A DNA stretch of 64,000 nt from Lingula anatina (GCA_051362555.1 CM120642.1:14384001-14448000); one strand, 5' to 3'. Shown: positions 1 through 61,922, counted from the first letter of the stretch. The notes: generated by a model not told the origin, from the letters alone. Made by a program: numbers and translations.

Positions 1-3000
1 GCCCCTACCCAGACATGGACTTCACACTTGGATCCAAGCTAAGGTTAGTAAATTTCATTTTTTTGGGGTGGTGGGATGGGTAAATTGAAGAAATCTAATC
101 TTGTTTTTCGTTTCTTTTTATAGGACGAAGAAGATGATGAGGGACCCCACCCGAACATGGACTTCACACTTGGATCCAAGCTAAGGTTAGTAAATTTTAT
201 TTTATCGGGGTGGTGGGATGGGTAAATTAAATAAATCTAATCTTGTTTTTCATTTCTTTTTACAGGACGAAGAAGATGAAGTGAGACCCCAACCGGACAT
301 GGACTTCACCCGTGGATCCAAGCTATGGTAAGTAAATTTCATTTTTTAGGGGTGGCGGGAATGGTAAATTGAAGAAATCTAATCCTGTTTTTCTTTTCTT
401 TTTACAGGATGAAGAAGATGATGAGGGACCCCACCCAGACATGGACTTCACTTTTGGATCAAAGTTAAGGTTAGTAAATTTCATTTTTTTGGGGTGGTGG
501 GATGGGTAAATTGAAGAAATCTAATCTTGTTTTTCTTTTCTTTTTATAGGACGAAGAAGATGATGAGGGACCCCACCCAGACATGGACTTCACACTTGGA
601 TCCAAGCTAAGGTTAGTAAATTTCATTTTTTTAGGGTGGTGGGATGGGTAAATTAAATAAATCTAATCTTCTTTTTCATTTCTTTTTACAGGACGAAGAA
701 GATGAAGTGAGACCCCAACCAGTGGACTTCACCCTTGGATCCAAGCTAAGGTAAGTAAATTTTATTTTTTTGGGGTGGCGGGAATGGTAAATTGAAGAAA
801 TCTAATCCTGTTTTTCGTTTCTTTTTACAGGACAAAGAAGATGATGAGCGCCCCCAACCAGACATGGACTTCACCCTTGGATTCAAGCTAAGGTTAGTAA
901 ATTTCATTTTTTGGGGTGGGGAGATTAGTAAATTGAAGAAATCTAATCCTGTTTTTCGTTTCTTTTTACAGGACAAAGAAGATGATGAGCGCCCCCAACC
1001 GGACATGGACTTCACCCTTGGATTCAAGCTAAGGTTAGTAAATTTCATTTTTTGGGGGTGGGGGGATTAGTAAATTGAAGAAATCTAATCCTGTTTTTCG
1101 TTTCTTTTTATAGGACAAAGAAGATGATGAGCGCCCCTACCCAGACATGGACTTCACACTTGGATCCAAGCTAAGGTTAGTAAATTTTATTTTTTCGGGA
1201 TGGTGGGATGGGTAAATTGAAGAAATCTAATCTTGTTTTTCTTTTCTTTTTACAGGATGAAGAAGATGATAAGGGACCCCACCCAGACATGGACTTCACT
1301 CTTGGATCCAAGTTAAGGTTAGTAAATTTCATTTTTTTGGGGTGGTGGGGTTGGTAAATTGAATAAATCTAATCTTGTTTTTCATTTCTTTTTACAGGAT
1401 GAAGAAGATGAAGTGAGACCCCAACCGGACATGGACTTCACCCTTGGATCCAAGCTAAGGTAAGTAAATTTCATTTTTTTGGGGTGGCGGGAATGGTAAA
1501 TTGAAGAAATCTAATCCTGTTTTTCGTTTCTTTTTACAGGACAAAGAAGATGATGAGCGCCCCTTCCCAGACATGGACTTCACACTTGGATCCAAGCTAA
1601 GGTTAGTAAATTTCATTTTTTTGGGGTGGTGGGATGGGTAAATTAAATAAATCTAATCTTGTTTTTCATTTCTTTTTACAGGACGAAGAAGATGAAGTGA
1701 GACCCCAACCGGACATGGACTTCACCCGTGGATCCAAGCTAAGGTAAGTAAATTTCATTTTTTTGGGGTGGCGGGAATGGTAAATTGAAGAAATCTAATC
1801 CTGTTTTTCGTTTCTTTTTACAGGACAAAGAAGATGATGAGCGCCCCCAACCGGACATGGACTTCACCCTTGGATTCAAGCTAAGGTTAGTAAATTTCAT
1901 TTTTTAGGGGTGGGGGGATTAGTAAATTGAAGAAATCTAATCCTGTTTTTCGTTTCTTTTTACAGGACAAAGAAGATGATGAGCGCCCCTACCCAGACAT
2001 GGACTTCACACTTGGATCCAAGCTAAGGTTAGTAAATTTCATTTTTTTGGGGTGGTGGGATGGGTAAATTGAAGAAATCTAATCTTGTTTTTCTTTTCTT
2101 TTTACAGGATGAAGCAGATGATGAGGGACCCCACCCAGACATGGACTTCACACTTGGATCCAAGTTAAGGTTAGTAAATTTCATTTTTTTGGGGTGATGG
2201 GGTTGGTAAATTGAAGAAATCTAATCTTGTTTTTCATTTCTTTTTACAGGACGAAGAAGATGAAGTGAGACCCCAACCGGACATGGACTTCACCCTTGGA
2301 TCCAAGCTAAGGTAAGTAAATTTCATTTTTTTGGGGTGGCGGGAATGGTAAATTGAAGAAATCTAATCCTGTTTTTCGTTTCTTTTTACAGGACAAAGAA
2401 GATGATGAGCGCCCCCAACCGGACATGGACTTCACCCTTGGATTCAAGCTAAGGTTAGTAAATTTCATTTTTTGGGGGTGGGGGGATTAGTAAATTGAAG
2501 AAATCTAATCCTGTTTTTCGTTTCTTTTTACAGGACAAAGAAGATGATGAACGCCCCTACCCAGACATGGACTTCACACTTGGATCCAAGCTAAGGTTAG
2601 TAAATTTCATTTTTTTGGGGTGGTGGGATGGGTAAATTGAAGAAATCTAATCTTGTTTTTCGTTTCTTTTTATAGGACGAAGAAGATGATGAGGGACCCC
2701 ACCCGAACATGGACTTCACACTTGGATCCAAGCTAAGGTTAGTAAATTTTATTTTATCGGGGTGGTGGGATGGGTAAATTAAATAAATCTAATCTTGTTT
2801 TTCATTTCTTTTTACAGGACGAAGAAGATGAAGTGAGACCCCAACCGGACATGGACTTCACCCGTGGATCCAAGCTATGGTAAGTAAATTTCATTTTTTA
2901 GGGGTGGCGGGAATGGTAAATTGAAGAAATCTAATCCTGTTTTTCTTTTCTTTTTACAGGATGAAGAAGATGATGAGGGACCCCACCCAGACATGGACTT

Positions 3001-6000
3001 CACTTTTGGATCAAAGTTAAGGTTAGTAAATTTCATTTTTTTGGGGTGGTGGGATGGGTAAATTGAAGAAATCTAATCTTGTTTTTCTTTTCTTTTTATA
3101 GGACGAAGAAGATGATGAGGGACCCCACCCAGACGTGGACTTCACACTTGGATCCAAGCTAAGGTTAGTAAATTTCATTTTTTTAGGGTGGTGGGATGGG
3201 TAAATTAAATAAATCTAATCTTCTTTTTCATTTCTTTTTACAGGACGAAGAAGATGAAGTGAGACCCCAACCAGTGGACTTCACCCTTGGATCCAAGCTA
3301 AGGTAAGTAAATTTTATTTTTTTGGGGTGGCGGGAATGGTAAATTGAAGAAATCTAATCCTGTTTTTCGTTTCTTTTTACAGGACAAAGAAGATGATGAG
3401 CGCCCCCAACCAGACATGGACTTCACCCTTGGATTCAAGCTAAGGTTAGTAAATTTCATTTTTTGGGGTGGGGAGATTAGTAAATTGAAGAAATCTAATC
3501 CTGTTTTTCGTTTCTTTTTACAGGACAAAGAAGATGATGAGCGCCCCCAACCGGACATGGACTTCACCCTTGGATTCAAGCTAAGGTTAGTAAATTTCAT
3601 TTTTTGGGGGTGGGGGGATTAGTAAATTGAAGAAATCTAATCCTGTTTTTCATTTCTTTTTACAGGACAAAGAAGATGATGAGCGCCCCTACCCAGACAT
3701 GGACTTCACACTTGGATCCAAGCTAAGGTTAGTAAATTTTATTTTTTCGGGATGGTGGGATGGGTAAATTGAAGAAATCTAATCTTGTTTTTCTTTTCTT
3801 TTTACAGGATGAAGAAGATGATAAGGGACCCCACCCAGACATGGACTTCACTCTTGGATCCAAGTTAAGGTTAGTAAATTTCATTTTTTTGGGGTGGTGG
3901 GGTTGGTAAATTGAATAAATCTAATCTTGTTTTTCATTTCTTTTTACAGGATGAAGAAGATGAAGTGAGACCCCAACCGGACATGGACTTCACCCTTGGA
4001 TCCAAGCTAAGGTAAGTAAATTTCATTTTTTTGGGGTGGCGGGAATGGTAAATTGAAGAAATCTAATCCTGTTTTTCGTTTCTTTTTACAGGACAAAGAA
4101 GATGATGAGCGCCCCTTCCCAGACATGGACTTCACACTTGGATCCAAGTTAAGGTTAGTAAATTTCATTTTTTTGGGGTGATGGGGTTGGTAAATTGAAG
4201 AAATCTAATCTTGTTTTTCATTTCTTTTTACAGGACGAAGAAGATGAAGTGAGACCCCAACCGGACATGGACTTCACCCTTGGATCCAAGCTAAGGTAAG
4301 TAAATTTCATTTTTTTGGGGTGGCGGGAATGGTAAATTGAAGAAATCTAATCCTGTTTTTCGTTTCTTTTTACAGGACAAAGAAGATGATGAGCGCCCCC
4401 AACCGGACATGGACTTCACCCTTGGATTCAAGCTAAGGTTAGTAAATTTCATTTTTTGGGGGTGGGGGGATTAGTAAATTGAAGAAATCTAATCCTGTTT
4501 TTCGTTTCTTTTTACAGGACAAAGAAGATGATGAACGCCCCTACCCAGACATGGACTTCACACTTGGATCCAAGCTAAGGTTAGTAAATTTCATTTTTTT
4601 GGGGTGGTGGGATGGGTAAATTGAAGAAATCTAATCTTGTTTTTCGTTTCTTTTTATAGGACGAAGAAGATGATGAGGGACCCCACCCGAACATGGACTT
4701 CACACTTGGATCCAAGCTAAGGTTAGTAAATTTTATTTTATCGGGGTGGTGGGATGGGTAAATTAAATAAATCTAATCTTGTTTTTCATTTCTTTTTACA
4801 GGACGAAGAAGATGAAGTGAGACCCCAACCGGACATGGACTTCACCCGTGGATCCAAGCTATGGTAAGTAAATTTCATTTTTTAGGGGTGGCGGGAATGG
4901 TAAATTGAAGAAATCTAATCTTGTTTTTCTTTTCTTTTTATAGGACGAAGAAGATGATGAGGGACCCCACCCAGACATGGACTTCACACTTGGATCCAAG
5001 CTAAGGTTAGTAAATTTCATTTTTTTAGGGTGGTGGGATGGGTAAATTAAATAAATCTAATCTTCTTTTTCATTTCTTTTTACAGGACGAAGAAGATGAA
5101 GTGAGACCCCAACCAGTGGACTTCACCCTTGGATCCAAGCTAAGGTAAGTAAATTTTATTTTTTTGGGGTGGCGGGAATGGTAAATTGAAGAAATCTAAT
5201 CCTGTTTTTCGTTTCTTTTTACAGGACAAAGAAGATGATGAGCGCCCCCAACCAGACATGGACTTCACCCTTGGATTCAAGCTAAGGTTAGTAAATTTCA
5301 TTTTTTGGGGTGGGGAGATTAGTAAATTGAAGAAATCTAATCCTGTTTTTCGTTTCTTTTTACAGGACAAAGAAGATGATGAGCGCCCCCAACCGGACAT
5401 GGACTTCACCCTTGGATTCAAGCTAAGGTTAGTAAATTTCATTTTTTGGGGGTGGGGGGATTAGTAAATTGAAGAAATCTAATCCTGTTTTTCGTTTCTT
5501 TTTACAGGACAAAGAAGATGATGAGCGCCCCTACCCAGACATGGACTTCACACTTGGATCCAAGCTAAGGTTAGTAAATTTTATTTTTTCGGGATGGTGG
5601 GATGGGTAAATTGAAGAAATCTAATCTTGTTTTTCTTTTCTTTTTACAGGATGAAGAAGATGATAATGGACCCCACCCAGACATGGACTTCACTCTTGGA
5701 TCCAAGTTAAGGTTAGTAAATTTCATTTTTTTGGGGTGGTGGGGTTGGTAAATTGAATAAATCTAATCTTGTTTTTCATTTCTTTTTACAGGATGAAGAA
5801 GATGAAGTGAGACCCCAACCGGACATGGACTTCACCCTTGGATCCAAGCTAAGGTAAGTAAATTTCATTTTTTTGGGGTGGCGGGAATGGTAAATTGAAG
5901 AAATCTAATCCTGTTTTTCGTTTCTTTTTACAGGACAAAGAAGATGATGAGCGCCCCTTCCCAGACATGGACTTCACACTTGGATCCAAGCTAAGGTTAG

Positions 6001-9000
6001 TAAATTTCATTTTTTTGGGGTGGTGGGATGGGTAAATTAAATAAATCTAATCTTGTTTTTCATTTCTTTTTACAGGACGAAGAAGATGAAGTGAGACCCC
6101 AACCGGACATGGACTTCACCCGTGGATCCAAGCTAAGGTAAGTAAATTTCATTTTTTTGGGGTGGCGGGAATGGTAAATTGAAGAAATCTAATCCTGTTT
6201 TTCGTTTCTTTTTACAGGACAAAGAAGATGATGAGCGCCCCCAACCGGACATGGACTTCACCCTTGGATTCAAGCTAAGGTTAGTAAATTTCATTTTTTA
6301 GGGGTGGGGGGATTAGTAAATTGAAGAAATCTAATCCTGTTTTTCGTTTCTTTTTACAGGACAAAGAAGATGATGAGCGCCCCTACCCAGACATGGACTT
6401 CACACTTGGATCCAAGCTAAGGTTAGTAAATTTCATTTTTTTGGGGTGGTGGGATGGGTAAATTGAAGAAATCTAATCTTGTTTTTCTTTTCTTTTTACA
6501 GGATGAAGCAGATGATGAGGGACCCCACCCAGACATGGACTTCACACTTGGATCCAAGTTAAGGTTAGTAAATTTCATTTTTTTGGGGTGATGGGGTTGG
6601 TAAATTGAAGAAATCTAATCTTGTTTTTCATTTCTTTTTACAGGACGAAGAAGATGAAGTGAGACCCCAACCGGACATGGACTTCACCCTTGGATCCAAG
6701 CTAAGGTAAGTAAATTTCATTTTTTGGGGGTGGCGGGAATGGTAAATTGAAGAAATCTAATCCTGTTTTTCGTTTCTTTTTACAGGACAAAGAAGATGAT
6801 GAGCGCCCCCAACCGGACATGGACTTCACCCTTGGATTCAAGCTAAGGTTAGTAAATTTCATTTTTTGGGGGTGGGGGGATTAGTAAATTGAAGAAATCT
6901 AATCCTGTTTTTCGTTTCTTTTTACAGGACAAAGAAGATGATGAACGCCCCTACCCAGACATGGACTTCACACTTGGATCCAAGCTAAGGTTAGTAAATT
7001 TCATTTTTTTGGGGTGGTGGGATGGGTAAATTGAAGAAATCTAATCTTGTTTTTCGTTTCTTTTTATAGGACGAAGAAGATGATGAGGGACCCCACCCGA
7101 ACATGGACTTCACACTTGGATCCAAGCTAAGGTTAGTAAATTTTATTTTATCGGGGTGGTGGGATGGGTAAATTAAATAAATCTAATCTTGTTTTTCATT
7201 TCTTTTTACAGGACGAAGAAGATGAAGTGAGACCCCAACCGGACATGGACTTCACCCGTGGATCCAAGCTATTGTAAGTAAATTTCATTTTTTAGGGGTG
7301 GCGGGAATGGTAAATTGAAGAAATCTAATCCTGTTTTTCTTTTCTTTTTACAGGATGAAGAAGATGATGAGGGACCCCACCCAGACATGGACTTCACTTT
7401 TGGATCAAAGTTAAGGTTAGTAAATTTCATTTTTTTGGGGTGGTGGGATGGGTAAATTGAAGAAATCTAATCTTGTTTTTCTTTTCTTTTTATAGGACGA
7501 AGAAGATGATGAGGGACCCCACCCAGACATGGACTTCACACTTGGATCCAAGCTAAGGTTAGTAAATTTCATTTTTTTAGGGTGGTGGGATGGGTAAATT
7601 AAATAAATCTAATCTTCTTTTTCATTTCTTTTTACAGGACGAAGAAGATGAAGTGAGACCCCAACCAATGGACTTCACCCTTGGATCCAAGCTAAGGTAA
7701 GTAAATTTTATTTTTTTGGGGTGGCGGGAATGGTAAATTGAAGAAATCTAATCCTGTTTTTCGTTTCTTTTTACAGGACAAAGAAGATGATGAGCGCCCC
7801 CAACCAGACATGGACTTCACCCTTGGATTCAAGCTAAGGTTAGTAAATTTCATTTTTTGGGGTGGGGAGATTAGTAAATTGAAGAAATCTAATCCTGTTT
7901 TTCGTTTCTTTTTACAGGACAAAGAAGATGATGAGCGCCCCCAACCGGACATGGACTTCACCCTTGGATTCAAGCTAAGGTTAGTAAATTTCATTTTTTG
8001 GGGGTGGGGGGATTAGTAAATTGAAGAAATCTAATCCTGTTTTTCGTTTCTTTTTACAGGACAAAGAAGATGATGAGCGCCCCTACCCAGACATGGACTT
8101 CACACTTGGATCCAAGCTAAGGTTAGTAAATTTTATTTTTTCGGGATGGTGGGATGGGTAAATTGAAGAAATCTAATCTTGTTTTTCTTTTCTTTTTACA
8201 GGATGAAGAAGATGATAAGGGACCCCACCCAGACATGGACTTCACTCTTGGATCCAAGTTAAGGTTAGTAAATTTCATTTTTTTGGGGTGATGGGGTTGG
8301 TAAATTGAATAAATCTAATCTTGTTTTTCATTTCTTTTTACAGGATGAAGAAGATGAAGTGAGACCCCAACCGGACATGGACTTCACCCTTGGATCCAAG
8401 CTAAGGTAAGTAAATTTCATTTTTTTGGGGTGGCGGGAATGGTAAATTGAAGAAATCTAATCCTGTTTTTCGTTTCTTTTTACAGGACAAAGAAGATGAT
8501 GAGCGCCCCTTCCCAGACATGGACTTCACACTTGGATCCAAGCTAAGGTTAGTAAATTTCATTTTTTTGGGGTGGTGGGATGGGTAAATTAAATAAATCT
8601 AATCTTGTTTTTCATTTCTTTTTACAGGACGAAGAAGATGAAGTGAGACCCCAACCGGACATGGACTTCACCCGTGGATCCAAGCTAAGGTAAGTAAATT
8701 TCATTTTTTTTGGGGTGGCGGGAATGGTAAATTGAAGAAATCTAATGCTGTTTTTCGTTTCTTTTTACAGGACAAAGAAGGTGATGAGCGCCCCCAACCG
8801 GACATGGACTTCACCCTTGGATTCAAGCTAAGGTTAGTAAATTTCATTTTTTAGGGGTGGGGGGATTAGTAAATTGAAGAAATCTAATCCTGTTTTTCGT
8901 TTCTTTTTACAGGACAAAGAAGATGATGAGCGCCCCTACCCAGACATGGAGTTCACACTTGGATCCAAGCTAAGGTTAGTAAATTTCATTTTTTTTGGGG

Positions 9001-12000
9001 TGGTGGGATGGGTAAATTGAAGAAATCTAATCTTGTTTTTCATTTCTTTTTACAGGATGAAGCAGATGATGAGGGACCCCACCCAGACATGGACTTCACA
9101 CTTGGATCCAAGTTAAGGTTAGTAAATTTCATTTTTTTGGGGTGATGGGGTTGGTAAATTGAAGAAATCTAATCTTGTTTTTCATTTCTTTTTACAGGAC
9201 GAAGAAGATGAAGTGAGACCCCAACCGGACATGGACTTCACCCTTGGATCCAAGCTAAGGTAAGTAAATTTCATTTTTTTGGGGTGGCGGGAATGGTAAA
9301 TTGAAGAAATCTAATCCTGTTTTTCGTTTCTTTTTACAGGACAAAGAAGATGATGAGCGCCCCCAACCGGACATGGACTTCACCCTTGGATCCAAGCTAA
9401 GGTAAGTAAATTTCATTTTTTGGGGTGGCGGGAATGGTAAATTGAAGAAATCTAATCTTGTTTTTCTTTTTTTTTTACAGGATGAAGAAGATGATGAGGG
9501 ACCCCACCCAGACATGGACTTCACTCTTGGATCCAAGTTAAGGTTAGTAAATTTCATTTTTTTGGGGTGATGGGGTTGGTAAATTGAAGAAATCTAATCT
9601 TGTTTTTCATTTCTTTTTACAGGACGAAGAAGATGAAGTGAGACCCCAACCGGACATGGACTTCACCCTTGGATCCAAGCTAAGGTAAGTAAATTTCATT
9701 TTTTTGGGGTGGCGGGAATGGTAAATTGAAGAAATCTAATCCTGTTTTTCGTTTCTTTTTACAGGACAAAGAAGATGATGAGCGCCCCCAACCGGACATG
9801 GACTTCACCCTTGGATTCAAGCTAAGGTTAGTAAATTTCATTTTTTGGGGGTGGGGGGATTAGTAAATTGAAGTAATCTAATCCTGTTTTTCGTTTCTTT
9901 TTACAGGACAAAGAAGATGATGAGCGCCCCTACCCAGACATGGACTTCACACTTGGATCCAAGCTAAGGTTAGTAAATTTCATTTTTTTGGGGTGATGGG
10001 GTTGGTAAATTGAAGAAATCTAATCCTGTTTTTCGTTTCTTTTTACAGGACGAAGAAGATGAAGTGAGACCCCAACCGGACATGGACTTCACCCTTGGAT
10101 CCAAGCTAAGGTAAGTAAATTTCATTTTTTTGGGGTGGCGGGAATGGTAAATTGAAGAAATCTAATCCTGTTTTTCGTTTCTTTTTACAGGACAAAGAAG
10201 ATGATGAGCGCCCCCAACCGGACATGGACTTCACCCTTGGATCCAAGCTAAGGTAAGTAAATTTCATTTTTTGGGGTGGCGGGAATGGTAAATTGAAGAA
10301 ATCTAATCTTGTTTTTCTTTTTTTTTTACAGGATGAAGAAGATGATGAGGGACCCCACCCAGACATGGACTTCACTCTTGGATCCAAGTTAAGGTTAGTA
10401 AATTTCATTTTTTTGGGGTGATGGGGTTGGTAAATTGAAGAAATCTAATCTTGTTTTTCATTTCTTTTTACAGGACGAAGAAGATGAAGTGAGACCCCAA
10501 CCGGACATGGACTTCACCCTTGGATCCAAGCTAAGGTAAGTAAATTTCATTTTTTTGGGGTGGCGGGAATGGTAAATTGAAGAAATCTAATCCTGTTTTT
10601 CGTTTCTTTTTACAGGACAAAGAAGATGATGAGCGCCCCCAACCGGACATGGACTTCACCCTTGGATTCAAGCTAAGGTTAGTAAATTTCATTTTTTGGG
10701 GGTGGGGGGATTAGTAAATTGAAGTAATCTAATCCTGTTTTTCGTTTCTTTTTACAGGACAAAGAAGATGATGAGCGCCCCTACCCAGACATGGACTTCA
10801 CACTTGGATCCAAGCTAAGGTTAGTAAATTTCATTTTTTTGGGGTGATGGGGTTGGTAAATTGAAGAAATCTAATCCTGTTTTTCGTTTCTTTTTACAGG
10901 ACGAAGAAGATGAAGTGAGACCCCAACCGGACATGGACTTCACCCTTGGATCTAAGCTAAGGTAAGTAAATTTCATTTTTTTGGGGTGGCGGGAATGGTA
11001 AATTGAAGAAATCTAATCTTGTTTTTCTTTTCTTTTTATAGGACGAAGAAGATGATGAGGGACCCCACCCAGACATGGACTTCACACTTGGATCCAAGCT
11101 AAGGTTAGTAAATTTCATTTTTTTAGGGTGGTGGGATGGGTAAATTAAATAAATCTAATCTTCTTTTTCATTTCTTTTTACAGGACGAAGAAGATGAAGT
11201 GAGACCCCAACCAATGGACTTCACCCTTGGATCCAAGCTAAGGTAAGTAAATTTTATTTTTTTGGGGTGGCGGGAATGGTAAATTGAAGAAATCTAATCC
11301 TGTTTTTCGTTTCTTTTTACAGGACAAAGAAGATGATGAGCGCCCCCAACCAGACATGGACTTCACCCTTGGATTCAAGCTAAGGTTAGTAAATTTCATT
11401 TTTTGGGGGTGGGGGGATTAGTAAATTGAAGAAATCTAATCCTGTTTTTCGTTTCTTTTTACAGGACAAAGAAGATGATGAGCGCCTCTACCCAGACATG
11501 GACTTCACACTTGGATCCAAGCTAAGGTTAGTAAATTTTATTTTTTCGGGATGGTGGGATGGGTAAATTGAAGAAATCTAATCTTGTTTTTCTTTTCTTT
11601 TTACAGGATGAAGAAGATGATAAGGGACCCCACCCAGACATGGACTTCACTCTTGGATCCAAGTTAAGGTTAGTAAATTTCATTTTTTTGGGGTGGCGGG
11701 AATGGTAAATTGAAGAAATCTAATCCTGTTTTTCGTTTCTTTTTACAGGACAAAGAAGATGATGAGCGCCCCTTCCCAGACATGGACTTCACACTTGGAT
11801 CCAAGCTAAGGTTAGTAAATTTCATTTTTTTTGGGGTGGTGGGATGGGTAAATTAAATAAATCTAATCTTGTTTTTCATTTCTTTTTACAGGACGAAGAA
11901 GATGAAGTGAGACCCCAACCGGACATGGACTTCACCCGTGGATCCAAGCTAAGGTAAGTAAATTTCATTTTTTTGGGGTGGCGGGAATGGTAAATTGAAG

Positions 12001-15000
12001 AAATCTAATCCTGTTTTTCGTTTCTTTTTACAGGACAAAGAAGATGATGAGCGCCCCCAACCGGACATGGACTTCACCCTTGGATTCAAGCTAAGGTTAG
12101 TAAATTTCATTTTTTAGGGGTGGGGGGATTAGTAAATTGAAGAAATCTAATCCTGTTTTTCGTTTCTTTTTACAGGACAAAGAAGATGATGAGCGCCCCT
12201 ACCCAGACATGGACTTCACACTTGGATCCAAGCTAAGGTTAGTAAATTTCATTTTTTTGGGGTGGTGGGATGGGTAAATTGAAGAAATCTAATCTTGTTT
12301 TTCTTTTCTTTTTACAGGATGAAGCAGATGATGAGGGACCCCACCCAGACATGGACTTCACACTTGGATCCAAGTTAAGGTTAGTAAATTTCATTTTTTT
12401 GGGGTGATGGGGTTGGTAAATTGAAGAAATCTAATCTTGTTTTTCATTTCTTTTTACAGGACGAAGAAGATGAAGTGAGACCCCAACCGGACATGGACTT
12501 CACCCTTGGATCCAAGCTAAGGTAAGTAAATTTCATTTTTTTGGGGTGGCGGGAATGGTAAATTGAAGAAATCTAATCCTGTTTTTCGTTTCTTTTTACA
12601 GGACAAAGAAGATGATGAGCGCCCCCAACCGGACATGGACTTCACCCTTGGATCCAAGCTAAGGTAAGTAAATTTCATTTTTTGGGGTGGCGGGAATGGT
12701 AAATTGAAGAAATCTAATCTTGTTTTTCTTTTTTTTTTACAGGATGAAGAAGATGATGAGGGACCCCACCCAGACATGGACTTCACTCTTGGATCCAAGT
12801 TAAGGTTAGTAAATTTCATTTTTTTGGGGTGATGGGGTTGGTAAATTGAAGAAATCTAATCTTGTTTTTCATTTCTTTTTACAGGACGAAGAAGATGAAG
12901 TGAGACCCCAACCGGACATGGACTTCACCCTTGGATCCAAGCTAAGGTAAGTAAATTTCATTTTTTTGGGGTGGCGGGAATGGTAAATTGAAGAAATCTA
13001 ATTCTGTTTTTCGTTTCTTTTTACAGGACAAAGAAGATGATGAGCGCCCCCAACCGGACATGGACTTCACCCTTGGATTCAAGCTAAGGTTAGTAAATTT
13101 CATTTTTTGGGGGTGGGGGGATTAGTAAATTGAAGTAATCTAATCCTGTTTTTCGTTTCTTTTTACAGGACAAAGAAGATGATGAGCGCCCCTACCCAGA
13201 CATGGACTTCACACTTGGATCCAAGCTAAGGTTAGTAAATTTCATTTTTTTGGGGTGATGGGGTTGGTAAATTGAAGAAATCTAATCCTGTTTTTCATTT
13301 CTTTTTACAGGACGAAGAAGATGAAGTGAGACCCCAACCGGACATGGACTTCACCCTTGGATCCAAGCTAAGGTAAGTAAATTTCATTTTTTTGGGGTGG
13401 CGGGAATGGTAAATTGAAGAAATCTAATCTTGTTTTTCTTTTCTTTTTATAGGACGAAGAAGATGATGAGGGACCCCACCCAGACATGGACTTCACACTT
13501 GGATCCAAGCTAAGGTTAGTAAATTTCATTTTTTTAGGGTGGTGGGATGGGTAAATTAAATAAATCTAATCTTCTTTTTCATTTCTTTTTACAGGACGAA
13601 GAAGATGAAGTGAGACCCCAACCAATGGACTTCACCCTTGGATCCAAGCTAAGGTAAGTAAATTTTATTTTTTTGGGGTGGCGGGAATGGTAAATTGAAG
13701 AAATCTAATCCTGTTTTTCGTTTCTTTTTACAGGACAAAGAAGATGATGAGCGCCCCCAACCAGACATGGACTTCACCCTTGGATTCAAGCTAAGGTTAG
13801 TAAATTTCATTTTTTTGGGTGGGGAGATTAGTAAATTGAAGAAATCTAATCCTGTTTTTCGTTTCTTTTTACAGGACAAAGAAGATGATGAGCGCCCCCA
13901 ACCGGACATGGACTTCACCCTTGGATTCAAGCTAAGGTTAGTAAATTTCATTTTTTGGGGGTGGGGGGATTAGTAAATTGAAGAAATCTAATCCTGTTTT
14001 TCGTTTCTTTTTACAGGACAAAGAAGATGATGAGCGCCCCTACCCAGACATGGACTTCACACTTGGATCCAAGCTAAGGTTAGTAAATTTTATTTTTTCG
14101 GGGTGGTGGGATGGGTAAATTGAAGAAATCTAATCTTGTTTTTCGTTTCTTTTTATAGGACGAAGAAGATGATGAGGGACCCCACTCGGACATGGACTTC
14201 ACACTTGGATCCAAGCTAAGGTTAGTAAATTTCATTTTTTTGGGGTGGTGGGATGGGTAAATTGAAGAAATCTAATCTTGTTTTTCTTTTATTTTTACAG
14301 GATGAAGAAGATGATGAGGGACCCCACCCAGACATGGAATTCACTCTTGGATCCAAGTTAAGGTTAGTAAATTTCATTATTTTGGGGTGATGGGGTTGGT
14401 AAATTGAAGAAATCTAATCCTGTTTTTCTTTTCTTTTTACCGGACGAAGAAGATGAAGTGAGACCCCAACCGGACATGGACTTCACCCTTGGATCCAAGC
14501 TAAGGTAAGTAAATTTCATTTTTTTGGGGTGGCGGGAATGGTAAATTGAAGAAATCTAATCCTGTTTTTCGTTTCTTTTTACAGGACAAAGAAGATGATG
14601 AGCGCCCCCAACCGGACATGGACTTCACCCTTGGATTCAAGCTAAGGTTAGTAAATTTCATTTTTTGGGGGTGGGGGGATTAGTAAATTGACGAAATCTA
14701 ATCCTGTTTTTCGTTTCTTTTTACAGGACAAAGAAGATGATGAACGCCCCTACCCAGACATGGACTTCACACTTGGATCCAAGCTAAGGTTAGTAAATTT
14801 CATTTTTTTGGGGTGGTGGGATGGGTAAATTGAAGAAATCTAATCTTGTTTTTCGTTTCTTTTTATAGGACGAAGAAGATGATGAGGGACCCCACCCGGA
14901 CATGGACTTCACACTTGGATCCAAGCTAAGGTTAGTAAATTTCATTTTTTTGGGGTGGTGGGATGGGTAAATTGAAGAAATCTAATCTTGTTTTTCTTTT

Positions 15001-21000: not shown

Positions 21001-24000
21001 TATGGACTTCACACTTGGATCCAAGCTAAGGTTAGTAAATTTCATTTTTTTGGGGTGGTGGGATGGGTAAATTAAATAAATCTAATCTTGTTTTTCATTT
21101 CTTTTTACAGGACGAAGAAGATGAAGTGAGACCCCAACCGGACATGGACTTCACCCGTGGATCCAAGCTAAGGTAAGTAAATTTCATTTTTTTGGGGTGG
21201 CGGGAATGGTAAATTGAAGAAATCTAATCCTGTTTTTCGTTTCTTTTTACAGGACAAAGAAGATGATGAGCGCCCCCAACCGGACATGGACTTCACCCTT
21301 GGATTCAAGCTAAGGTTAGTAAATTTCATTTTTTAGGGGTGGGGGGATTAGTAAATTGAAGAAATCTAATCCTGTTTTTCGTTTCTTTTTACAGGACAAA
21401 GAAGATGATGAGCGCCCCTACCCAGACATGGACTTCACACTTGGATCCAAGCTAAGGTTAGTAAATTTCATTTTTTTGGGGTGGTGGGATGGGTAAATTG
21501 AAGAAATCTAATCTTGTTTTTCTTTTCTTTTTACAGGACGAAGAAGATGAAGTGAGACCCCAACCGGACATGGACTTCACCCTTGGATCCAAGCTAAGGT
21601 AAGTAAATTTCATTTTTTTGGGGTGGCGGGAATGGTAAATTGAAGAAATCTAATCCTGTTTTTCGTTTCTTTTTACAGGACGAAGAAGATGAAGTGAGAC
21701 CCCAACCGGACATGGACTTCACCCTTGGATCCAAGCTAAGGTAAGTAAATTTCATTTTTTTGGGGTGGCGGGAATGGTAAATTGAAGAAATCTAATCCTG
21801 TTTTTCGTTTCTTTTTACAGGACGAAGAAGATGAAGTGAGACCCCAACCGGACATGGACTTCACCCTTGGATCCAAGCTAAGGTTAGTAAATTTTATTTT
21901 TTCGGGGTGGTGGGATGGGTAAATTGAAGAAATCTAATCTTGTTTTTCGTTTCTTTTTATAGGACGAAGAAGATGAGGGACCCCACCCGGACATGGACTT
22001 CACACTTGGATCCAATCTAAGGTTAGTAAATTTCATTTTTTTGGGGTGGTGGGATGGGTAAATTGAAGAAATCTAATCTTGTTTTTCTTTTTTTTTTTAC
22101 AGGATGAAGAAGATGATGAGGGACCCCACCCAGACATGGACTTCACTCTTGGATCCAAGTTAAGGTTAGTAAATTTCATTTTTTTGGGGTGATGGGGTTG
22201 GTAAATTGAAGAAATCTAATCTTGTTTTTCATTTCTTTTTACAGGACGAAGAAGATGAAGTGAGACCCCAACCGGACATGGACTTCACCCTTGGATCCAA
22301 GCTAAGGTAAGTAAATTTCATTTTTTTGGGGTGTGGGGATTAGTAAATTGAAGAAATCTAATCCTGTTTTTCGTTTCTTTTTAAAGGACAAAGAAGATGA
22401 TGAGCGCCCCTACCCAGACATGGACTTCACCCTTGGATTCAAGCTAAGGTTAGTAAATTTTATTTTTTCGGGGTGGCGGGAATGGTAAATTGAAGAAATC
22501 TAATCCTGTTTTTCGTTTCTTTTTACAGGACAAAGAAGATGATGAGCGCCCCCAACCGGACATGGACTTCACCCTTGGATTCAAGCTAAGGTTAGTAAAT
22601 TTCATTTTTTGGGGGTGGGGGGATTAGTAAATTGAAGAAATCTAATCCTGTTTTTCGTTTCTTTTTACAGGACAAAGAAGATGATGAGCGCCCCTACCCA
22701 GACATGGACTTCACACTTGGATCCAAGCTAAGGTTAGTAAATTTTATTTTTTCGGGGTGGTGGGATGGGTAAATTGAAGAAATCTAATCTTGTTTTTCGT
22801 TTCTTTTTATAGGACGAAGAAGATGATGAGGGACCCCACTCGGACATGGACTTCACACTTGGATCCAAGCTAAGGTTAGTAAATTTCATTTTTTTGGGGT
22901 GGTGGGATGGGTAAATTGAAGAAATCTAATCTTGTTTTTCTTTTATTTTTACAGGATGAAGAAGATGATGAGGGACCCCACCCAGACATGGACTTCATTC
23001 TTGGATCCAAGTTAAGGTTAGTAAATTTCATTTTTTTTGGGGTGATGGGGTTGGTAAATTGAAGAAATCTAATCCTGTTTTTCTTTTCTTTTTACAGGAC
23101 GAAGAAGATGAAGTGAGACCCCAACCGGACATGGACTTCACCCTTGGATCCTAGCTAAGGTTAGTAAATTTCATTTTTTTGGGGTGGTGGGATGGGTAAA
23201 TTGAAGAAATCTAATCTTGTTTTTCTTTTATTTTTACAGGATGAAGAAGATGATGAGGGACCCCACCCAGACATGGACTTCATTCTTGGATCCAAGCTAA
23301 GGTTAGTAAATTTCATTTTTTTGGGGTGGTGGGATGGGTAAATTGAAGAAATCTAATCTTGTTTTTCATTTCTTTTTACAGGACGAAGAAGATGAAGTGA
23401 GACCCCAACCGGACATGGACTTCACCCGTGGATCCAAGCTAAGGTAAGTAAATTTCATTTTTTTGGGGTGGCGGGAATGGTAAATTGAAGAAATCTAATC
23501 CTGTTTTTCTTTTCTTTTTACAGGATGAAGAAGATGATGAGGGACCCCACCCAGACATGGACTTCACTCTTGGATCAAAGTTAAGGTTAGTAAATTTCAT
23601 TTCTTTGGCGTGGTGGGATGGGTAAATTGAAGAAATCTAATCTTGTTTTTCTTTTCTTTTTATAGGACGAAGAAGATGATGAGGGACCCCACCCAGACAT
23701 GGACTTCACACTTGGATCCAAGCTAAGGTTAGTAAATTTCATTTTTTTAGGGTGGTGGGATGGGTAAATTAAATAAATCTAAGCTTCTTTTTCATTTCTT
23801 TTTACAGGACGAAGAAGATGAAGTGAGACCCTAACCGGACATGGACTTCACCCTTGGATCCAAGCTAAGGTAAGTAAATTTTATTTTTTTGGGGTGGCGG
23901 GAATGGTAAATTGAAGAAATCTAATCCTGTTTTTCGTTTCTTTTTACAGGACAAAGAAGATGATGAGCGCCCCCAACCGGACATGGACTTCACCCTTGGA

Positions 24001-30000: not shown

Positions 30001-33000
30001 GGCGGGAATGGTAAATTGAAGAAATCTAATCCTGTTTTTCTTTTCTTTTTACAGGATGAAGAAGATGATGAGGGACCCCACCCAGACATGGACTTCACTC
30101 TTGGATCAAAGTTAAGGTTAGTAAATTTCATTTTTTTGGGGTGGTGGGATGGGTAAATTGAAGAAATCTAATCTTGTTTTTCTTTTCTTTTTATAGGACG
30201 AAGAAGATGATGAGGGACCCCACCCAGACATGGACTTCACACTTGGATCCAAGCTAAGGTAAGTAAATTTTATTTTTTTGGGGGGGCGGGAATGGTAAAT
30301 TGAAGAAATCTAATCCTGTTTTTTGTTTCTTTTTACAGGACAAAGAAGATGATGAGCGCCCCCAACCGGACATGGACTTCACCCTTGGATTCAAGCTAAG
30401 GTTAGTAAATTTCATTTTTTGGGGTGGGGAGATTAGTAAATTGAAGAAATCTAATCCTGTTTTTCGTTTCTTTTTACAGGACAAAGAAGATGATGAGCGC
30501 CCCCAACTGGACATGGACTTCACCCTTGCATTCAAGCTAAGGTTAGTAAATTTCATTTTTTGGGGGTGGGGGGATTAGTAAATTGAAGAAATCTAATCCT
30601 GTTTTTCGTTTCTTTTTACAGGACAAAGAAGATGATGAGCGCCCCTACCCAGACATGGACTTCACACTTGGATCCAAGCTAAGGTTAGTAAATTTTATTT
30701 TTTCGGGGTGGTGGGATGGGTAAATTGAAGAAATCTAATCTTGTTTTTCGTTTCTTTTTATAGGACGAAGAAGATGAGGGACCCCACCCGGACATGGACT
30801 TCACACTTGGATCCAATCTAAGGTTAGTAAATTTCATTTTTTTGGGGTGGTGGGATGGGTAAATTGAAGAAATCTAATCTTGTTTTTCTTTTTTTTTTAC
30901 AGGATGAAGAAGATGATGAGGGACCCCACCCAGACATGGACTTCACTCTTGGATCCAAGTTAAGGTTAGTAAATTTCATTTTTTTGGGGTGATGGGGTTG
31001 GTAAATTGAAGAAATCTAATCTTGTTTTTCGTTTCTTTTTACAGGACAAAGAAGATGATGAGCGCCCCTACCCAGACATGGACTTCACACTTGGATCCAA
31101 GCTAAGGTTAGTAAATTTTATTTTTTCGGGGTGGCGGGAATGGTAAATTGAAGAAATCTAATCCTGTTTTTCGTTTCTTTTTACAGGACAAAGAAGATGA
31201 TGAGCGCCCCCAACCGGACATGGACTTCACCCTTGGATTCAAGCTAAGGTTAGTAAATTTCATTTTTTGGGGGTGGGGGGATTAGTAAATTGAAGAAATC
31301 TAATCCTGTTTTTCGTTTCTTTTTATAGGACAAAGAAGATGATGAGCGCCCCTACCCAGACATGGACTTCACACTTGGATCCAAGCTAAGGTTAGTAAAT
31401 TTTATTTTTTCGGGGTGGTGGGATGGGTAAATTGAAGAAATCTAATCTTGTTTTTCGTTTCTTTTTATAGGACGAAGAAGATGATGAGGGACCCCACTCG
31501 GACATGGACTTCACACTTGGATCCAAGCTAAGGTTAGTAAATTTCATTTTTTTGGGGTGGTGGGATGGGTAAATTGAAGAAATCTAATCTTGTTTTTCTT
31601 TTATTTTTACAGGATGAAGAAGATGATGAGGGACCCCACCCAGACATGGACTTCATTCTTGGATCCAAGTTAAGGTTAGTAAATTTCATTTTTTTGGGGT
31701 GATGGGGTTGGTAAATTGAAGAAATCTAATCCTGTTTTTCTTTTCTTTTTACAGGACGAAGAAGATGAAGTGAGACCCCAACCGGACATGGACTTCACCC
31801 TTGGATCCAAGCTAAGGTAAGTAAATTTCATTTTTTTGGGGTGGCGGGAATGGTAAATTGAAGAAATCTAATCCTGTTTTTCGTTTCTTTTTACAGGACA
31901 AAGAAGATGATGAGCGCCCCCAACCGGACATGGACTTCACCCTTGGATTCAAGCTAAGGTTAGTAAATTTCATTTTTTGGGGGTGGGGGGATTAGTAAAT
32001 TGAAGAAATCTAATCCTGTTTTTCGTTTCTTTTTACAGGACAAAGAAGATGATGAACGCCCCTACCCAGACATGGACTTCACACTTGGATCCAAGCTAAG
32101 GTTAGTAAATTTCATTTTTTTGGGGTGGTGGGATGGGTAAATTGAAGAAATCTAATCTTGTTTTTCGTTTCTTTTTATAGGACGAAGAAGATGATGAGGG
32201 ACCCCACCCGGATATGGACTTCACACTTGGATCCAAGCTAAGGTTAGTAAATTTCATTTTTTTGGGGTGGTGGGATGGGTAAATTGAAGAAATCTAATCT
32301 TGTTTTTCTTTTCTTTTTACAGGATGAAGAAGATGATAAGGGACCCCACCCAGACATGGACTTCACTCTTGGATCCAAGTTAAGGTTAGTAAATTTCATT
32401 TTTTTGGGGTGGTGGGGTTGGTAAATTGAATAAATCTAATCTTGTTTTTCATTTCTTTTTACAGGATGAAGAAGATGAAGTGAGACCCCAACCGGACATG
32501 GACTTCACCCTTGGATCCAAGCTAAGGTAAGTAAATTTCATTTTTTTTGGGATGGCGGGAATGGTAAATTGAAGAAATCTAATCCTGTTTTTCGTTTCTT
32601 TTTACAGGACAAAGAAGATGATGAGCGCCCCTTCCCAGACATGGACTTCACACTTGGATCCAAGCTAAGGTTAGTAAATTTTATTTTATCGGGGTGGTGG
32701 GATGGGTAAATTAAATAAATCTAATCTTGTTTTTCATTTCTTTTTACAGGACGAAGAAGATGAAGTGAGACCCCAACCGGACATGCACTTCACCCGTGGA
32801 TCCAAGCTAAGGTAAGTAAATTTCATTTTTTTAGGGTGGCGGGAATGGTAAATTGAAGAAATCTAATCCTGTTTTTCTTTTCTTTTTACAGGATGAAGAA
32901 GATGATGAGGGACCCCACCCAGACATGGACTTCACTCTTGGATCAAAGTTAAGGTTAGTAAATTTCATTTTTTTGGGGTGGTGGGATGGGTAAATTGAAG

Positions 33001-48000: not shown

Positions 48001-51000
48001 ATCCAAGCTAAGGTTAGTAAATTTCATTTTTTTGGGGTGGTGGGATGGGTAAATTGAAGAAATCTAATCTTGTTTTTCGTTTCTTTTTATAGGACGAAGA
48101 AGATGATGAGGGACCCCACCCGGACATGGACTTCACACTTGGATCCAAGCTAAGGTTAGTAAATTTCATTTTTTTGGGGTGGTGGGATGGGTAAATTGAA
48201 GAAATCTAATCTTGTTTTTCTTTTCTTTTTACAGGATGAAGAAGATGATGAGGGACCCCACCCAGACATGGACTTCACTCTTGGATCCAAGTTAAGGTTA
48301 GTAAATTTCATTTTTTTGGGGTGGTGGGGTTGGTAAATTGAATAAATCTAATCTTGTTTTTCATTTCTTTTTACAGGATGAAGAAGATGAAGTGAGACCC
48401 CAACCGGACATGGACTTCACCCTTGGATCCAAGCTAAGGTAAGTAAATTTCATTTTTTTGGGGTGGCGGGAATGGTAAATTGAAGAAATCTAATCCTGTT
48501 TTTCGTTTCTTTTTACAGGACAAAGAAGATGATGAGCGCCCCCAACCGGACATGGACTTCACTCTTGGATTCAAGCTAAGGTTAGTAAATTTCATTATTT
48601 TGGGGTGGGGGGATTAGTAAATTGAAGAAATCTAATCCTGTTTTTGGTTTCTTTTTATAGGACAAAGAAGATGATGAGGGACCCCACCCAGATATGGACT
48701 TCGCTCTTGGATCCAAGCTAAGGTTAGTAAATTTCATTTTTTTGGGGGTGGCGGAATGGTAAATTGAAGAAATCTAATCCTGTTTTTCGTTTCTTTTTAC
48801 AGGACAAAGAAGATGATGAGCGCCCCCAACCGGACATGGACTTCACCCTTGGATTCAAGCTAAGGTTAGTAAATTTCATTTTTTGGGGTGGGGGGATTAG
48901 TAAATTGAAGAAATCTAATCCTGTTTTTGGTTTCTTTTTACAGGACAAAGAAGATGATGAGCGCCCCTACCCAGACATGGACTTCACACTTGGATCCAAG
49001 CTAAGGTTAGTAAATTTCATTTTTTCGGGTTGGTGGGATGGGTAAATTAAAGAAATCTAATCTTGTTTTTGTTTTCTTTTTACAGAATGAAGAAGATGAT
49101 GAGGGACCCCACCCAGATATGGACTTCACTCTTGGATCCAAGCTAAGGTTAGTAAATTTAATTATTTTGGGGTGGGGGGATTAGTATATTGAAGAAATCT
49201 AATCCTGTTTTTGGTTTCTTTTAACAGGACAAAGAAGATGATGAGCGCCCCTACCCAGACATGGACTTCACACTTGGATCCAAGCTAAGGTTAGTAAATT
49301 TCATTTTTTCAGGGTGGTGAGATGGGTAAATTGAAGAAATCTAATCTTGTTTTTGTTTTCTTTTTACAGAATGAAGAAGATGATGAGGGACCCCACCCAG
49401 ATATGGACTTCACTCTTGGATCCAAGCTAAGGTTAGTAAATTTCATTTTTTTGGGGTGGCGGGAATGGTAAATTGAAGAAGTCTAATCTTGTTTTTCGTT
49501 TCTTTTTACAGGACGAAGAAGATAATGATCGAGGGACCCCACCCGGACATGGACTTTACCCTTGGATCCAAGCTAAGGTTAGTAAATTTCATTTTTTTGG
49601 GGTGGCAGGAATGGTAAATTGAAGAAATCTAATCCTGTTTTTCGTATCTTTTTACAGGACAAAGAAGATGATGAGCGCCCCTACCCAGACATGGACTTCA
49701 CACTTGAATCCCAGCTAAGGTTAGTAAATTTCATTTTTTCGGGGTGGTGGGATGGATAAATTGAAGAAATCTAATCTTGTTTTTCTTTTCTTTTTACAGG
49801 ATGAAGAAGATGATGAGGGACCACACCCAGACATGGACTTCACTCTTGGATCCAAGTTAAGATTAGTAAATTTCATTTTTTTGGGGTGGTGGGATGGGTA
49901 AATTGAAGAAATCTTATCTTGTTTTTCATTTCTTTTTATAGGACGAAGAAGATGATGAGGGACCCCACCCGGACATGGACTTTACTCTTGGATCCAAGCT
50001 AAGGTTAGTAAATTTCATTTTTTTGGGGTGGTGGGATTGGCAAATTGCATAAATCTAATCTTGTTTTTCGTTTCTTTTTACAGGACAAAGAAGATGAAGT
50101 GAGACCCCAACCGGACATGGACTTCACTCTTGGATCCAAGCTAAGGTTAGTAAATTTCATTTTTTTGGGGTGGTGGGATTGGTAAATTGCATAAATCTAA
50201 TCTTGTTTTTCGTTTCTTTTTACAGGACAAAGAAGATGAAGTGAGACCCCAACCGGACATGGACTTCACCCGTGGATCCAAGCTAAGGTTAGTAAATTTC
50301 ATTTTTTGGGGGTGGGGGGATTAGTAAATTGACGAAATCTAATCCTGTTTTTCGTTTCTTTTTACAGGACAAAGAAGATGATGAACGCCCCTACCCAGAC
50401 ATGGACTTCACACTTGGATCCAAGCTAAGGTTAGTAAATTTCATTTTTTTGGGGTGGTGGGATGGGTAAATTGAAGAAATCTAATCTTGTTTTTCGTTTC
50501 TTTTTATAGGACGAAGAAGATGATGAGGGACCCCACTCGGACATGGACTTCACACTTAGATCCAAGCTAAGGTTAGTAAATTTCATTTTTTTGGTGTGGC
50601 GGGAATGGTAAATTGAAGAAATCTAATCCTGTTTTTCGTTTTTTTTTACAGGACAAAGAAGATGATGTGCGCCCCTACCCAGACATGGACTTCACACTTG
50701 GATCCCAGCTAAGGTTAGTAAATTTCATTTTTTTGGGGTGGTGGGATGGGTAAATTGAAGAAATCTAAACTTCTTTTTCGTTTCTTTTTACAGGACGAAG
50801 AAGATGATGAGGGACCCCACCCGGACATGGACTTCACTCTTGGATCCAAGTTAAGGTTAGTAAATTTCATTTTTTGGGGGTGGTGGGATTGGTAAATTGA
50901 AGAAATCTAATCCTGTTTTTCGTTTCTTTTTACAGGACGAAGAAGATGATGAGTGCCCCCAACCGGACATGGACTTCACCCTTGGATTCAAGCTAAGGTT

Positions 51001-52551
51001 AGTAAATTTCATTTTTTTGGGGTGGTGGGATGGGTAAATTAAATAAATCTAATCTTGTTTTTCATTTCTTTTTACAGGACAAAGAAGATGAAGTGAGACC
51101 CCGACCGGACATGGACTTCACCCTTGGATCCAAGCTAAGGTTAGTAAATTTCATTTTTTTTGAGTGGTGGGATTGGTAAATTGAAGAAATGTAATCCTGT
51201 TTTTCGTTTCTTTTTACAGTACAAAGAAGATGATGAGCGACCCCATCCGGACATGGACTTCACTCTTGGATCCAAGTTAAGGTTAGTAAATTTCATTTTT
51301 TTGGGGTGGTGGGATTGGTAAATTGAAGAAATCTAATCCTGTTTTTCGTTTCTTTTTACAGGACGAAGAAGATGATGAGTGCCCCCAACCGGACATGGAC
51401 TTCACCCTTGGATCCAAATTAAGGTAAGTAAATTTAACTTTTTTGGGGTGGTGGGATTGGTAAATTGAAGAAATCTAATCTTGTTTTTCGTTTCTTTTTA
51501 TAGGACAAAGAAGATGAAGTGAGACCCCAACCGGACATGGACTTCACTCTTGGATCAAAGCTAAGGTAAGTAAATTCCATTTTTTGGGGGTGGTGGGATT
51601 GGTAAATTGAAGAAATGTAATCCTGTTTTTCGTTTCTTTTTACAGGACAAAGAAGATGATGAGCGCCCCTACCCAGACATGGACTTCACACTTGGATCCA
51701 AGTTAAGGTAAGTAAATTTCATTGTTTTGGGGTGGTGGGATGGGTAAATTGAGGAAATCTTATCTTGTTTTTCGTTTCTTTTTACAGGACAAAGAAGATG
51801 ATGAGCGACCCCACCCGGACATGGACTGCACTCTTGGATCCAAGTTAAGGTAAGTAAATTTAATTTTTTTGGTGGGTGGTGGGATTGGTAAATTGAAGAA
51901 GTCTAATCTTGTTTTTTATTTCTTTTTACAGGACAAAGAAGATGATGAGCGACCCCACCGGGACATGGACTTCACTCTTGGATCCAAGCTACAGTTAGTA
52001 AATTTCACTTTTTTGGGGGTGGTGGGATTGGTAAATTGAAGAAATCTAACCCTTTTTTTGTTTCTTTTTACAGGACAAAGAAGATGATGAGCGCCCCTAC
52101 CAAGATATGGACTTCACACTTGGATCCAAGTTAAGGTAAGTAAATTTTATTTTTTATGGGGTGGTGGGATGGGTAAATTGAAGAAATCTAATTTTGTTTT
52201 TCGTTTCTTTTTACAGGACAAAGAAGATGATGAGCGACCCCACCCGGACATGGACTGCACTCTTGGATCCAAGTTAAGGTAAGTAAATTTCATTGTTTTG
52301 GGGTGGTGGGATGGGTAAATTGAAGAAGTCTAATCTTGTTTTTTTCGTTTCTTTTTACAGGACTAAGAAGATGAACTGCGACCCCACCCGGACATGGACT
52401 TCCCCCTTGGATCCAAGCTAAGGTTAGTAAATTTCATTTTTTTGGGGTGGTGGGATTGGTAAATTGAAGAAATCTAATCCTGTTTTTCGTTTCTTTTTAC
52501 AGGACAAAGAAGATGATTAGCGACCCCACCCAGACATGGACTCTTGGATCC
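1..52551 (+). repeat. Tandem (satellite-like) array of ~142-bp monomers, about 370 copies in the window, open at the left edge; each monomer has exon-intron architecture on the + strand
   Basis: Seen directly: monomer ~ GACAAAGAAGATGATGAGCGCCCCCAACCGGACATGGACTTCACCCTTGGATCCAAGCTAAG|GT(T/A)AGTAAATTTCAT(6-8)GGGGTGGTGGGATGGGTAAATTGAAGAAATCTAATC(C/T)TGTTTTTCGTTTCTTTTTACAG repeated head-to-tail with no insertions noticed. Copy number is 52551/142, not a direct count. Most monomers carry GGATCC (BamHI) within the 12-bp palindrome CTTGGATCCAAG. Confidence 0.98.
831..892 (+). other. Representative 62-nt exon-like unit of the array (DKEDDERPQPDMDFTLGFKL + AG)
   Basis: Preceded by CTAAT...TTTTTCGTTTCTTTTTACAG (AG at 829-830) and followed by GTTAGT at 893. 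The splice signals are seen in sequence; actual splicing is inferred. Confidence 0.6.
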
Positions 52552-52639
52552 GGAAGACCCAGAAGATTTTCAATTTTAATGTAATATTACACAATGCTTA
52601 ACAGCAAAATAACCATTAATTTTTTAATAATAAAATAAA
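52503..52639 (+). other. Putative terminal exon of the array transcript with in-frame TAG and poly(A) signals
   Basis: Last acceptor TTTTTACAG ends at 52502. GAC AAA GAA GAT GAT TAG follows (stop 52518-52520). The monomer is abandoned after CTTGGATCC at 52551 with no donor. Overlapping AATAAA hexamers at 52629-52634 and 52634-52639, in AT-rich sequence where they could arise by chance. Confidence 0.45.
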
Positions 52640-53039
52640 AGTATCATGGACATTCAAAAAATGTGACTAGCTCATATAGTTCAGAGTCACACTTTGAAAA
52701 TCCCCAAATGTAAAGAAAAGAAAATGTATTGAGAAGAGGTTATGTCCATTTTCAACACCTTTTTTACATAAAACAAAATAATCAATTTACTGTCATTTTT
52801 ATATGATCAATTGAAAAAAATGTTGTCAAAGGAAAAAATAACAATGGAACAGATTCTTAACTTAGTGAATGATTGAATCTGACGAACTGCATAATGTGCA
52901 GGTCTACAATTTTTATATAATCAACTAACAATATTGTTAAGAAGCAGAAAATATCAAAACAACACTCTTACATATCCAATTATTTCCATAATGAGACTAT
53001 TAACATGCCTTAGAATTAAATCTAAAGAAAAAAAACACT

Positions 53040-58142: not shown

Positions 58143-60771
<2,629 letters not shown>

Positions 60772-61869: not shown

Positions 61870-61922
<53 letters not shown>

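Follow-up and report, generated by a model that had tools for sequence, protein, structure and literature searches.

The closest described system to the repeat reported here is the mouse Dxz4 array, in which a transcript that starts at an external promoter is joined by splicing to the same exon of 163 nucleotides (nt) in each monomer, with exon skipping and with unspliced sense RNA alongside (PMC3491370, in the part of the article available). As described in the same excerpts (PMC3491370), the Dxz4 array, which is called small, has variable monomers with an internal variable number tandem repeat (VNTR) and a CTCF site, and has unique flanking exons and a mapped promoter. Here we describe a satellite of the brachiopod Lingula anatina that fills more than 52 kb of a 64,000-nt stretch of DNA (GCA_051362555.1, CM120642.1:14384001-14448000; the whole stretch is called the window, and all positions are counted from its first letter). 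In RNA of family copies, whose reads are unlike the monomer types of the array, one short exon per monomer is joined to the next, as in Dxz4, and the joined product is likely to be non-coding. It differs from Dxz4 in its far smaller units (a 142-bp monomer made of an exon and a minimal intron) and its far more numerous copies (at least 370), which are homogenised in blocks. The likeness is an analogy only, and we claim no homology. The best explanation, which we hold with slightly better than even confidence, is that the array is a young, homogenised satellite of at least 370 exon-plus-intron units, amplified from a module of a low-level, spliced and likely non-coding repeat family.

Other systems resemble the Lingula array in part. 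The 37-bp VNTR in intron 7 of human F7 also multiplies a gene's own splice site; as far as the excerpted report goes, only the donor is repeated there and the extra sites are normally silent (PMC1557585), whereas the Lingula unit repeats donor, branch and acceptor, and family copies use them. The RRD local repeat of FIRRE/Firre is a repeated exon that makes up 7 of 13 human exons and 11 of 23 mouse exons, and its binding to hnRNPU has been tested (PMC4820808, partial text). It offers a model for a repeated exon as a protein-binding or nuclear-retention module; its copies are few, dispersed and functionally tested, and any likeness would lie in the repeated exon of a non-coding RNA. At rat Bsr, C/D small nucleolar RNAs (snoRNAs) lie in 86 tandem repeats (PMC6315983, partial text). 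The Bsr/MEG8 and SNORD116 arrays, with C/D snoRNAs in their repeats, are long non-coding transcription units of tandem repeats, as the Lingula array may putatively be, but the Lingula intron, judged by Rfam and by folding, contains no small RNA family or hairpin. A Bsr/MEG8 or SNORD116 unit is generally described as one exon plus one intron. Small tandem exons are also found in repeat-exon coding genes and in Dscam cassette arrays; the Lingula exon is like these in its small size and open acidic frame, and unlike them in that 62 nt is not frame-symmetric, that the exons are joined together and that no protein homologue was found. In literature lying mostly outside subscription journals, Dxz4 was the sole close precedent for spliced satellite monomers, and no description of this family appeared among work on L. 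anatina satellite DNA. The word 'satellite' does not occur in the main text of the L. anatina genome paper, in the portion available, and the repeat table of that paper may list the family (PMC4595640).

Anatomy and organisation of the array

Tandem Repeats Finder reported a single array on the + strand (window 3-52,542; period 142, 370.1 copies, 90% matches). As the array runs beyond the left edge of the window, 370 copies is a lower bound. Each monomer of ~142 bp consists of a 62-nt exon-type segment and an 80-nt intron-type segment, with 369 introns and 368 internal exons marked out by alignment; one further exon, an intron and a degenerate last exon were taken from the sequence. The first complete intron-type segment lies at 44-123 (+; 80 nt, GT..AG, branch CTAAT, pyrimidine tract) and the first complete exon-type segment at 124-185 (+; 62 nt), whose open frame puts the acceptor in phase 0 and the donor in phase 2. 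GT..AG ends were present in 361 of the 369 introns. The base at donor +3 was T in 268 introns and A in 101, and that at acceptor -3 was C in 313, T in 53 and A in 3. CTAAT was found in 360 introns, with the branch A 26 nt before the intron end in 356. Of 20,000 dinucleotide shuffles, 1 produced the full ordered anatomy (donor, branch, pyrimidine tract and YAG/G, the slash marking the boundary) on either strand, as defined by a pattern composed after the monomer had been inspected.

These data agree well with a preliminary description made from the sequence alone. It had proposed hundreds of tandem 62-nt exons, which was borne out (62 nt in 356 of 368 exons, 59 nt in nine, and one each of 61, 63 and 66 nt), together with donor, CTAAT branch, pyrimidine tract and acceptor in that order. 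The common donor and acceptor variants do stay within or near the splice consensus, and length variation is chiefly intronic, as it had stated: 46 of 369 introns depart from the usual length (80 nt in 323, 79 nt in 22, 81 nt in 22 and 82 nt in 2) compared to 12 of 368 exons. None of 32 exon-exon junction 20-mers is present in the window, which also matches. Its account of a purine-rich exon with motifs of the SR-protein enhancer type stood in part. Strong purine richness is limited to the first 21 nt of the exon (81%, compared to 58% for the whole exon), no more than 197 of 368 exons contain GAAGAAGA, and GAAGA is shared with the introns, 304 of 369 of which carry it.

Two other ways of reading the unit were rejected. 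An alternative 66-nt exon, using a GT four bases downstream, is stop-ended in 94 of 356 copies, and the RNA reads set the joint at 62. A gene on the minus strand would lose its donor wherever the common TAG acceptor variant occurs, and reads with the joint lie on one strand, consistent with the + strand.

The array is built from four main, near-identical monomer types (A-D), which dominate it and alternate in irregular higher-order blocks; monomers differ on average at 13.1 per 142 positions. Runs of near-identical monomers recur at lags of 18, 23, 30 and 31 monomers, as expected for block duplications, and the longest exact repeat within the array is 1,804 nt. The majority of interior monomers have an identical partner elsewhere in the array. 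In contrast, the last 19 aligned monomers (49688-52360, +) have none and form a diverged edge, with a mean of 5.3 differences to the nearest monomer. Duplicated blocks, a homogenised interior and an older edge are the pattern that recent amplification of a satellite by unequal exchange leaves. The array, long and head-to-tail, has all three and shows these features of satellite DNA; it was probably amplified recently by unequal exchange, with an older edge. The preliminary description had the array arise by amplification of one exon plus intron, and the block duplications and homogenised units fit this. Two 3-nt exon deletions have been propagated by block duplication, one to 6 copies (580-13,620) and the other to 3 (21,851-30,790), and could be used as markers of the history of expansion. 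Metagenome contigs gave 0 matches.

Family RNA and its joints

RNA sequencing (RNA-seq) reads came from six of nine raw runs labelled L. anatina (X1, X2, X3, X4, X7 and X8, leaving X5, X6 and X9 aside). Placement of four of these on one target monomer (window 52177-52318) yielded 61 reads from 12.4 million records in X1, 42 from 11.9 million in X3, 20 from 11.1 million in X7 and 7 from 10.7 million in X8. The reads piled up on the exon of the target (52217-52278, +): on the first-mate-minus side, depth was 31-57 in the exon compared to 4-11 in the outer intron bins in X1, and 18-32 compared to 2-5 in X3. This side corresponds to the + strand by the usual library convention, and X1 behaved as a stranded library on the flank. 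In X3, 7-8 reads on the opposite side were flat and unspliced, and X2 had array reads on both sides.

Reads looped from the end of the exon back to its start. Their joint, from 52276 to 52215 (62 nt back, with 3 letters of slack), is the predicted boundary from 52278 to 52217, at AG/GAC. It was seen in 6 of 61 reads in X1 (2 starts) and 9 of 42 in X3 (6 starts), on a single strand. Two additional joints in X1, with 4 reads each, had periods of 62 and 63 nt, X3 contained a 58-nt joined form (2 reads), and placement at the end of the array (3' edge and flank) gave 3 further junction reads from X1. Exon-to-exon joints were the commonest joints among the reads. Thus, splicing of the module has direct read support, from family copies, and the exon-intron unit works as a module in the way first proposed, with exons joined at the predicted boundary on the expected strand.

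The 63-nt form, translated by hand, ends D-H-F-L-D-Q-E-F-K in frame 0, if its 5' part is collinear. The terminal exon of the array holds L-D-P-E-D-P-E-D-F-Q-F-stop in a similar register. This resemblance, from 4 to 8 reads, hints at an in-frame ancestor.

Two further sets of reads touch the same exon. At the acceptor, before window 52216, reads also join two upstream sequences that differ from each other (8 reads in X1 and 4 in X3); one of them resembles a decayed family exon, and the other could be a unique exon. Behind window 52236, reads in X1, X3, X7 and X8 (4, 10, 6 and 3, respectively) leave the exon after its first 20 nt and run on into a diverged paralogue; frame 0 of this paralogue is open over the 30 letters seen, making it a candidate relative of the ancestral coding exon.

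Does this RNA come from the array itself? Only 6 of 130 reads on the target monomer were at least 95% alike, and the target itself is ~89% like the average window exon. Several letters common in the reads of X1 and X3 combined are rare or absent in the array: 52239T (41 of 72 reads, 2 of 369 monomers), 52269A (22 of 50 reads, 0 of 369 monomers), 52252T (17 of 62 reads, 0 of 369 monomers) and 52265T (14 of 50 reads, 0 monomers). Conversely, 52220G, which is typical of the array (210 of 369 monomers), was found in 4 of 79 of these reads, and the best 40 of 51 variant rows did not include the change at 52261 that 303 of 369 monomers would predict. Read placement may favour target-like reads, yet it cannot create alleles that are missing from the array. 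We therefore place the RNA in diverged copies of the family. At the 3' edge of the array, X1 depth falls from 14 to 1.4, the reads stop short of the 3' flank, and the letter peculiar to the terminal exon at 52518 is missing from 21 of 24 reads. RNA of the entire family amounts to ~5 reads per million.

Origin of the array and rival explanations

The frame of the exon bears on what the module once was. Frame 0 is open in 365 of 368 copies and encodes an acidic 20-residue peptide (69 distinct peptides), whereas the other two frames contain stops in 365 of 368 and 368 of 368 copies. Since the acceptor is in phase 0 and the donor in phase 2, exon-exon joining shifts the frame and brings a stop in the second exon. 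All exons joined in silico give 22,855 nt, in which the longest stop-free run is 77 codons; with this frameshift, the joined RNA cannot encode a long protein, and the family product is likely non-coding. A repeat-exon protein gene would have exons of a length divisible by three and an open joined frame, and here 356 of 368 exons are 62 nt and a 63-nt form is known as one variant among the reads. Exon variants that create stops number 3, with 2.3 expected. Pfam matched 0 of 4 array peptides, and a second search for protein homologues, also with short and partly intronic queries, returned 0 at E<=0.001. At most, the openness of frame 0 may be a faint coding relic, as judged from the sequence.

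The preliminary description also proposed testing whether GT, AG and the branch A vary less than their neighbours. We found no sign of current selection of this kind. Rare alleles numbered 3 at GT and AG (4.0 expected by base), 2 at the branch site (2.4 expected) and 18 at 18 splice columns fixed beforehand (16.2 expected), and two of three broken splice-site variants had been copied, 3 and 4 times. Thus, recent mutations strike splice sites as often as other positions, and current constraint is undetected. Among the 18 columns, common variants occur only at donor +3 (T/A) and acceptor -3 (C/T; P=0.24). An earlier 11-column test that omitted these two positions gave P=0.008, and five core columns gave P=0.07. 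Older selection on the splice sites is possible.

From these data we propose the following for the origin of the array. The splice signals are complete in each unit, the joints of family RNA fall at these sites (+ strand, by the library convention), and by arithmetic each 62-nt exon shifts the frame to a stop in the next. The module may go back to a coding gene, as a small acidic repeat exon that was possibly 63 nt long and in frame. Unequal crossing-over would then have multiplied and homogenised one version of it in this array, which would make the splice signals of the array inherited passengers. Read-through from a promoter on the left would lead to splicing of the array as well, with a product that would probably be degraded or retained in the nucleus.

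Several observations weigh against this proposal. The exon-exon joints all come from one study (P1, runs X1 and X3), and none is listed in X7 (20 reads) or X8 (7 reads); X7 instead contains an unspliced 142-nt joint (4 reads). The junction-spanning reads foreseen in the preliminary description were thus found in two runs, from reads unlike the monomer types of the array. The strand is assigned by library convention and the behaviour of X1 on the flank, and the joined form is known from RNA reads alone, so that an intronless genomic copy is a possible source. L. anatina diverges among localities (PMC8146825, in the part available), and the 'diverged copies' could therefore be this locus in another population. 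The signal of a coding relic is marginal: 10 of 22 common exon variants are synonymous (P=0.056), compared to 16 of 66 among all exon variants (P=0.67). Read-through alignments that contain the exon peptide gave no protein homologue among 1,521 candidates (101-2000 amino acids), a weak blank given short, partly intronic queries. Finally, when donor +3 and acceptor -3 are dropped afterwards from the 18 splice columns, P falls to 0.026, which leaves room for older selection.

The alternative that survives best, although we consider it unlikely, is that the array supplies the body of a giant non-coding RNA made by splicing (at least 370 exons and at least 23 kb), with a promoter to the left of the window and expression in a tissue, stage or population that was not sampled, serving as a repeat scaffold. 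The splice anatomy is intact in 361 of 369 introns, family joints fall at the predicted sites, common variants spare GT, AG and the branch site, mouse Dxz4 provides a precedent and population divergence could account for the read mismatches. Against this, array-typical letters are scarce in the reads, depth collapses at the 3' edge where most reads lack the terminal exon letter, the entire family yields only the few reads per million given above, and broken sites were copied 3-4 times rather than purged. The ~23-kb spliced RNA initially proposed for this array is, accordingly, unsupported so far, and the scaffold and splicing-factor-loading roles suggested for it are hypothetical. We are equally doubtful of a version in which the array is itself transcribed and its units are spliced one after another, giving a non-coding RNA of at least 370 exons that consists entirely of satellite and whose monomer, a minimal splicing unit, would have escaped from a 63-nt acidic exon of a repeat protein. 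Titin, for comparison, has ~363 exons, fewer than 370.

It is less probable again that the source of the joined reads is an intronless 62-bp repeat in the genome, which would be a retrocopy or else an ancestral minisatellite and be transcribed within another gene, with no current splicing in the family and an inert array. That the joints come from one study would suit such a source. However, they lie exactly at ends bounded by GT and AG, X1 contains intron-containing and joined reads on the same strand, the same acceptor also receives two other upstream sequences (in the 8 and 4 reads described above), and no such copy exists in the window, where 0 of the 32 junction words occur.

A bank of 62-nt coding cassettes that exclude one another, as in Dscam, entered in phase 0 and left in phase 2, with frameshift and decay removing double inclusions, seems very improbable. 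Frame 0 is open in nearly all exons with many distinct peptides, which would suit such a bank, and the terminal exon is open for 26 codons after a phase-2 donor. Yet the exons are seen joined to each other, in what are the commonest joints, which disfavours the mutually exclusive form of the bank of alternative cassettes raised in the preliminary description; moreover, all variants taken together show neither amino-acid diversification nor constraint, four near-identical monomer types dominate, and there is no protein match. We give least credence to the idea that the array hosts an intron-encoded small RNA (snoRNA or mirtron) with disposable exons, as in rat Bsr or SNORD116: the layout is alike, a junk exon and an intron in tandem, but there is no Rfam match near the gathering score, the folding of the introns is no better than that of shuffled sequences (z 0.19 to 0.57), and at 80 nt they are mostly splice signal. 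A spliced-leader RNA array was rejected, as every unit has an acceptor, the runs hold 7-61 reads each and Rfam gave no match; the one loose end listed behind the exon end resembles another family exon.

Flank, neighbouring genes and significance

At its right end the array closes with a penultimate exon (52361-52422, +) that has a frame 0 stop at codon 2, a last intron (52423-52502, +) and a degenerate terminal exon (52503-52580, +), which has a frame 0 stop, is ~5 nt shorter in mid-exon and lacks a donor; homology ends near 52550. Downstream of the array, an AATAAA (52629-52634, +) is a candidate poly(A) signal in flank that resembles dispersed repeats. The flank at 52548-53070 behaves as a patchwork of dispersed repeats with thousands of reads less than 95% alike, and in X1, X2 and X4 these lie mostly on the strand opposite to the splice orientation of the array. 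It is followed at 53072-54074 by about seven degenerate copies of a ~166-bp repeat, with hundreds of RNA reads 80-95% alike at its left end; we take its length to be reminiscent of the 166-bp repeats of oysters.

The CLN5 gene (54373-57038, +) starts ~1.8 kb to the right of the array end; its last exon is 100% identical to Lingula anatina CLN5, and Pfam also assigns CLN5. Further right lies a multi-exon EF-hand gene (about 58110-60773, -; open reading frame 58485-58745), presumably centrin-like, and head to head with it are exons at about 61911-63671 (+) that we take to encode a dehydrogenase of the NSDHL/3-beta-HSD family.

What does the array mean for how satellites arise? It ties the birth of a satellite to the architecture of genes: the unit amplified into this array of more than 52 kb is an exon-intron module that is complete and usable, and relatives of this module are seen in RNA with joints at its splice sites. 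Should the array be unspliced, it would be a clear case of splice signals that ride along as passengers, and one that could mislead gene prediction. Should it be spliced itself, its hundreds of near-identical 80-nt introns would make it an extreme natural substrate for the definition and skipping of exons, and it would be a candidate repeat scaffold in a phylum that has received little study.

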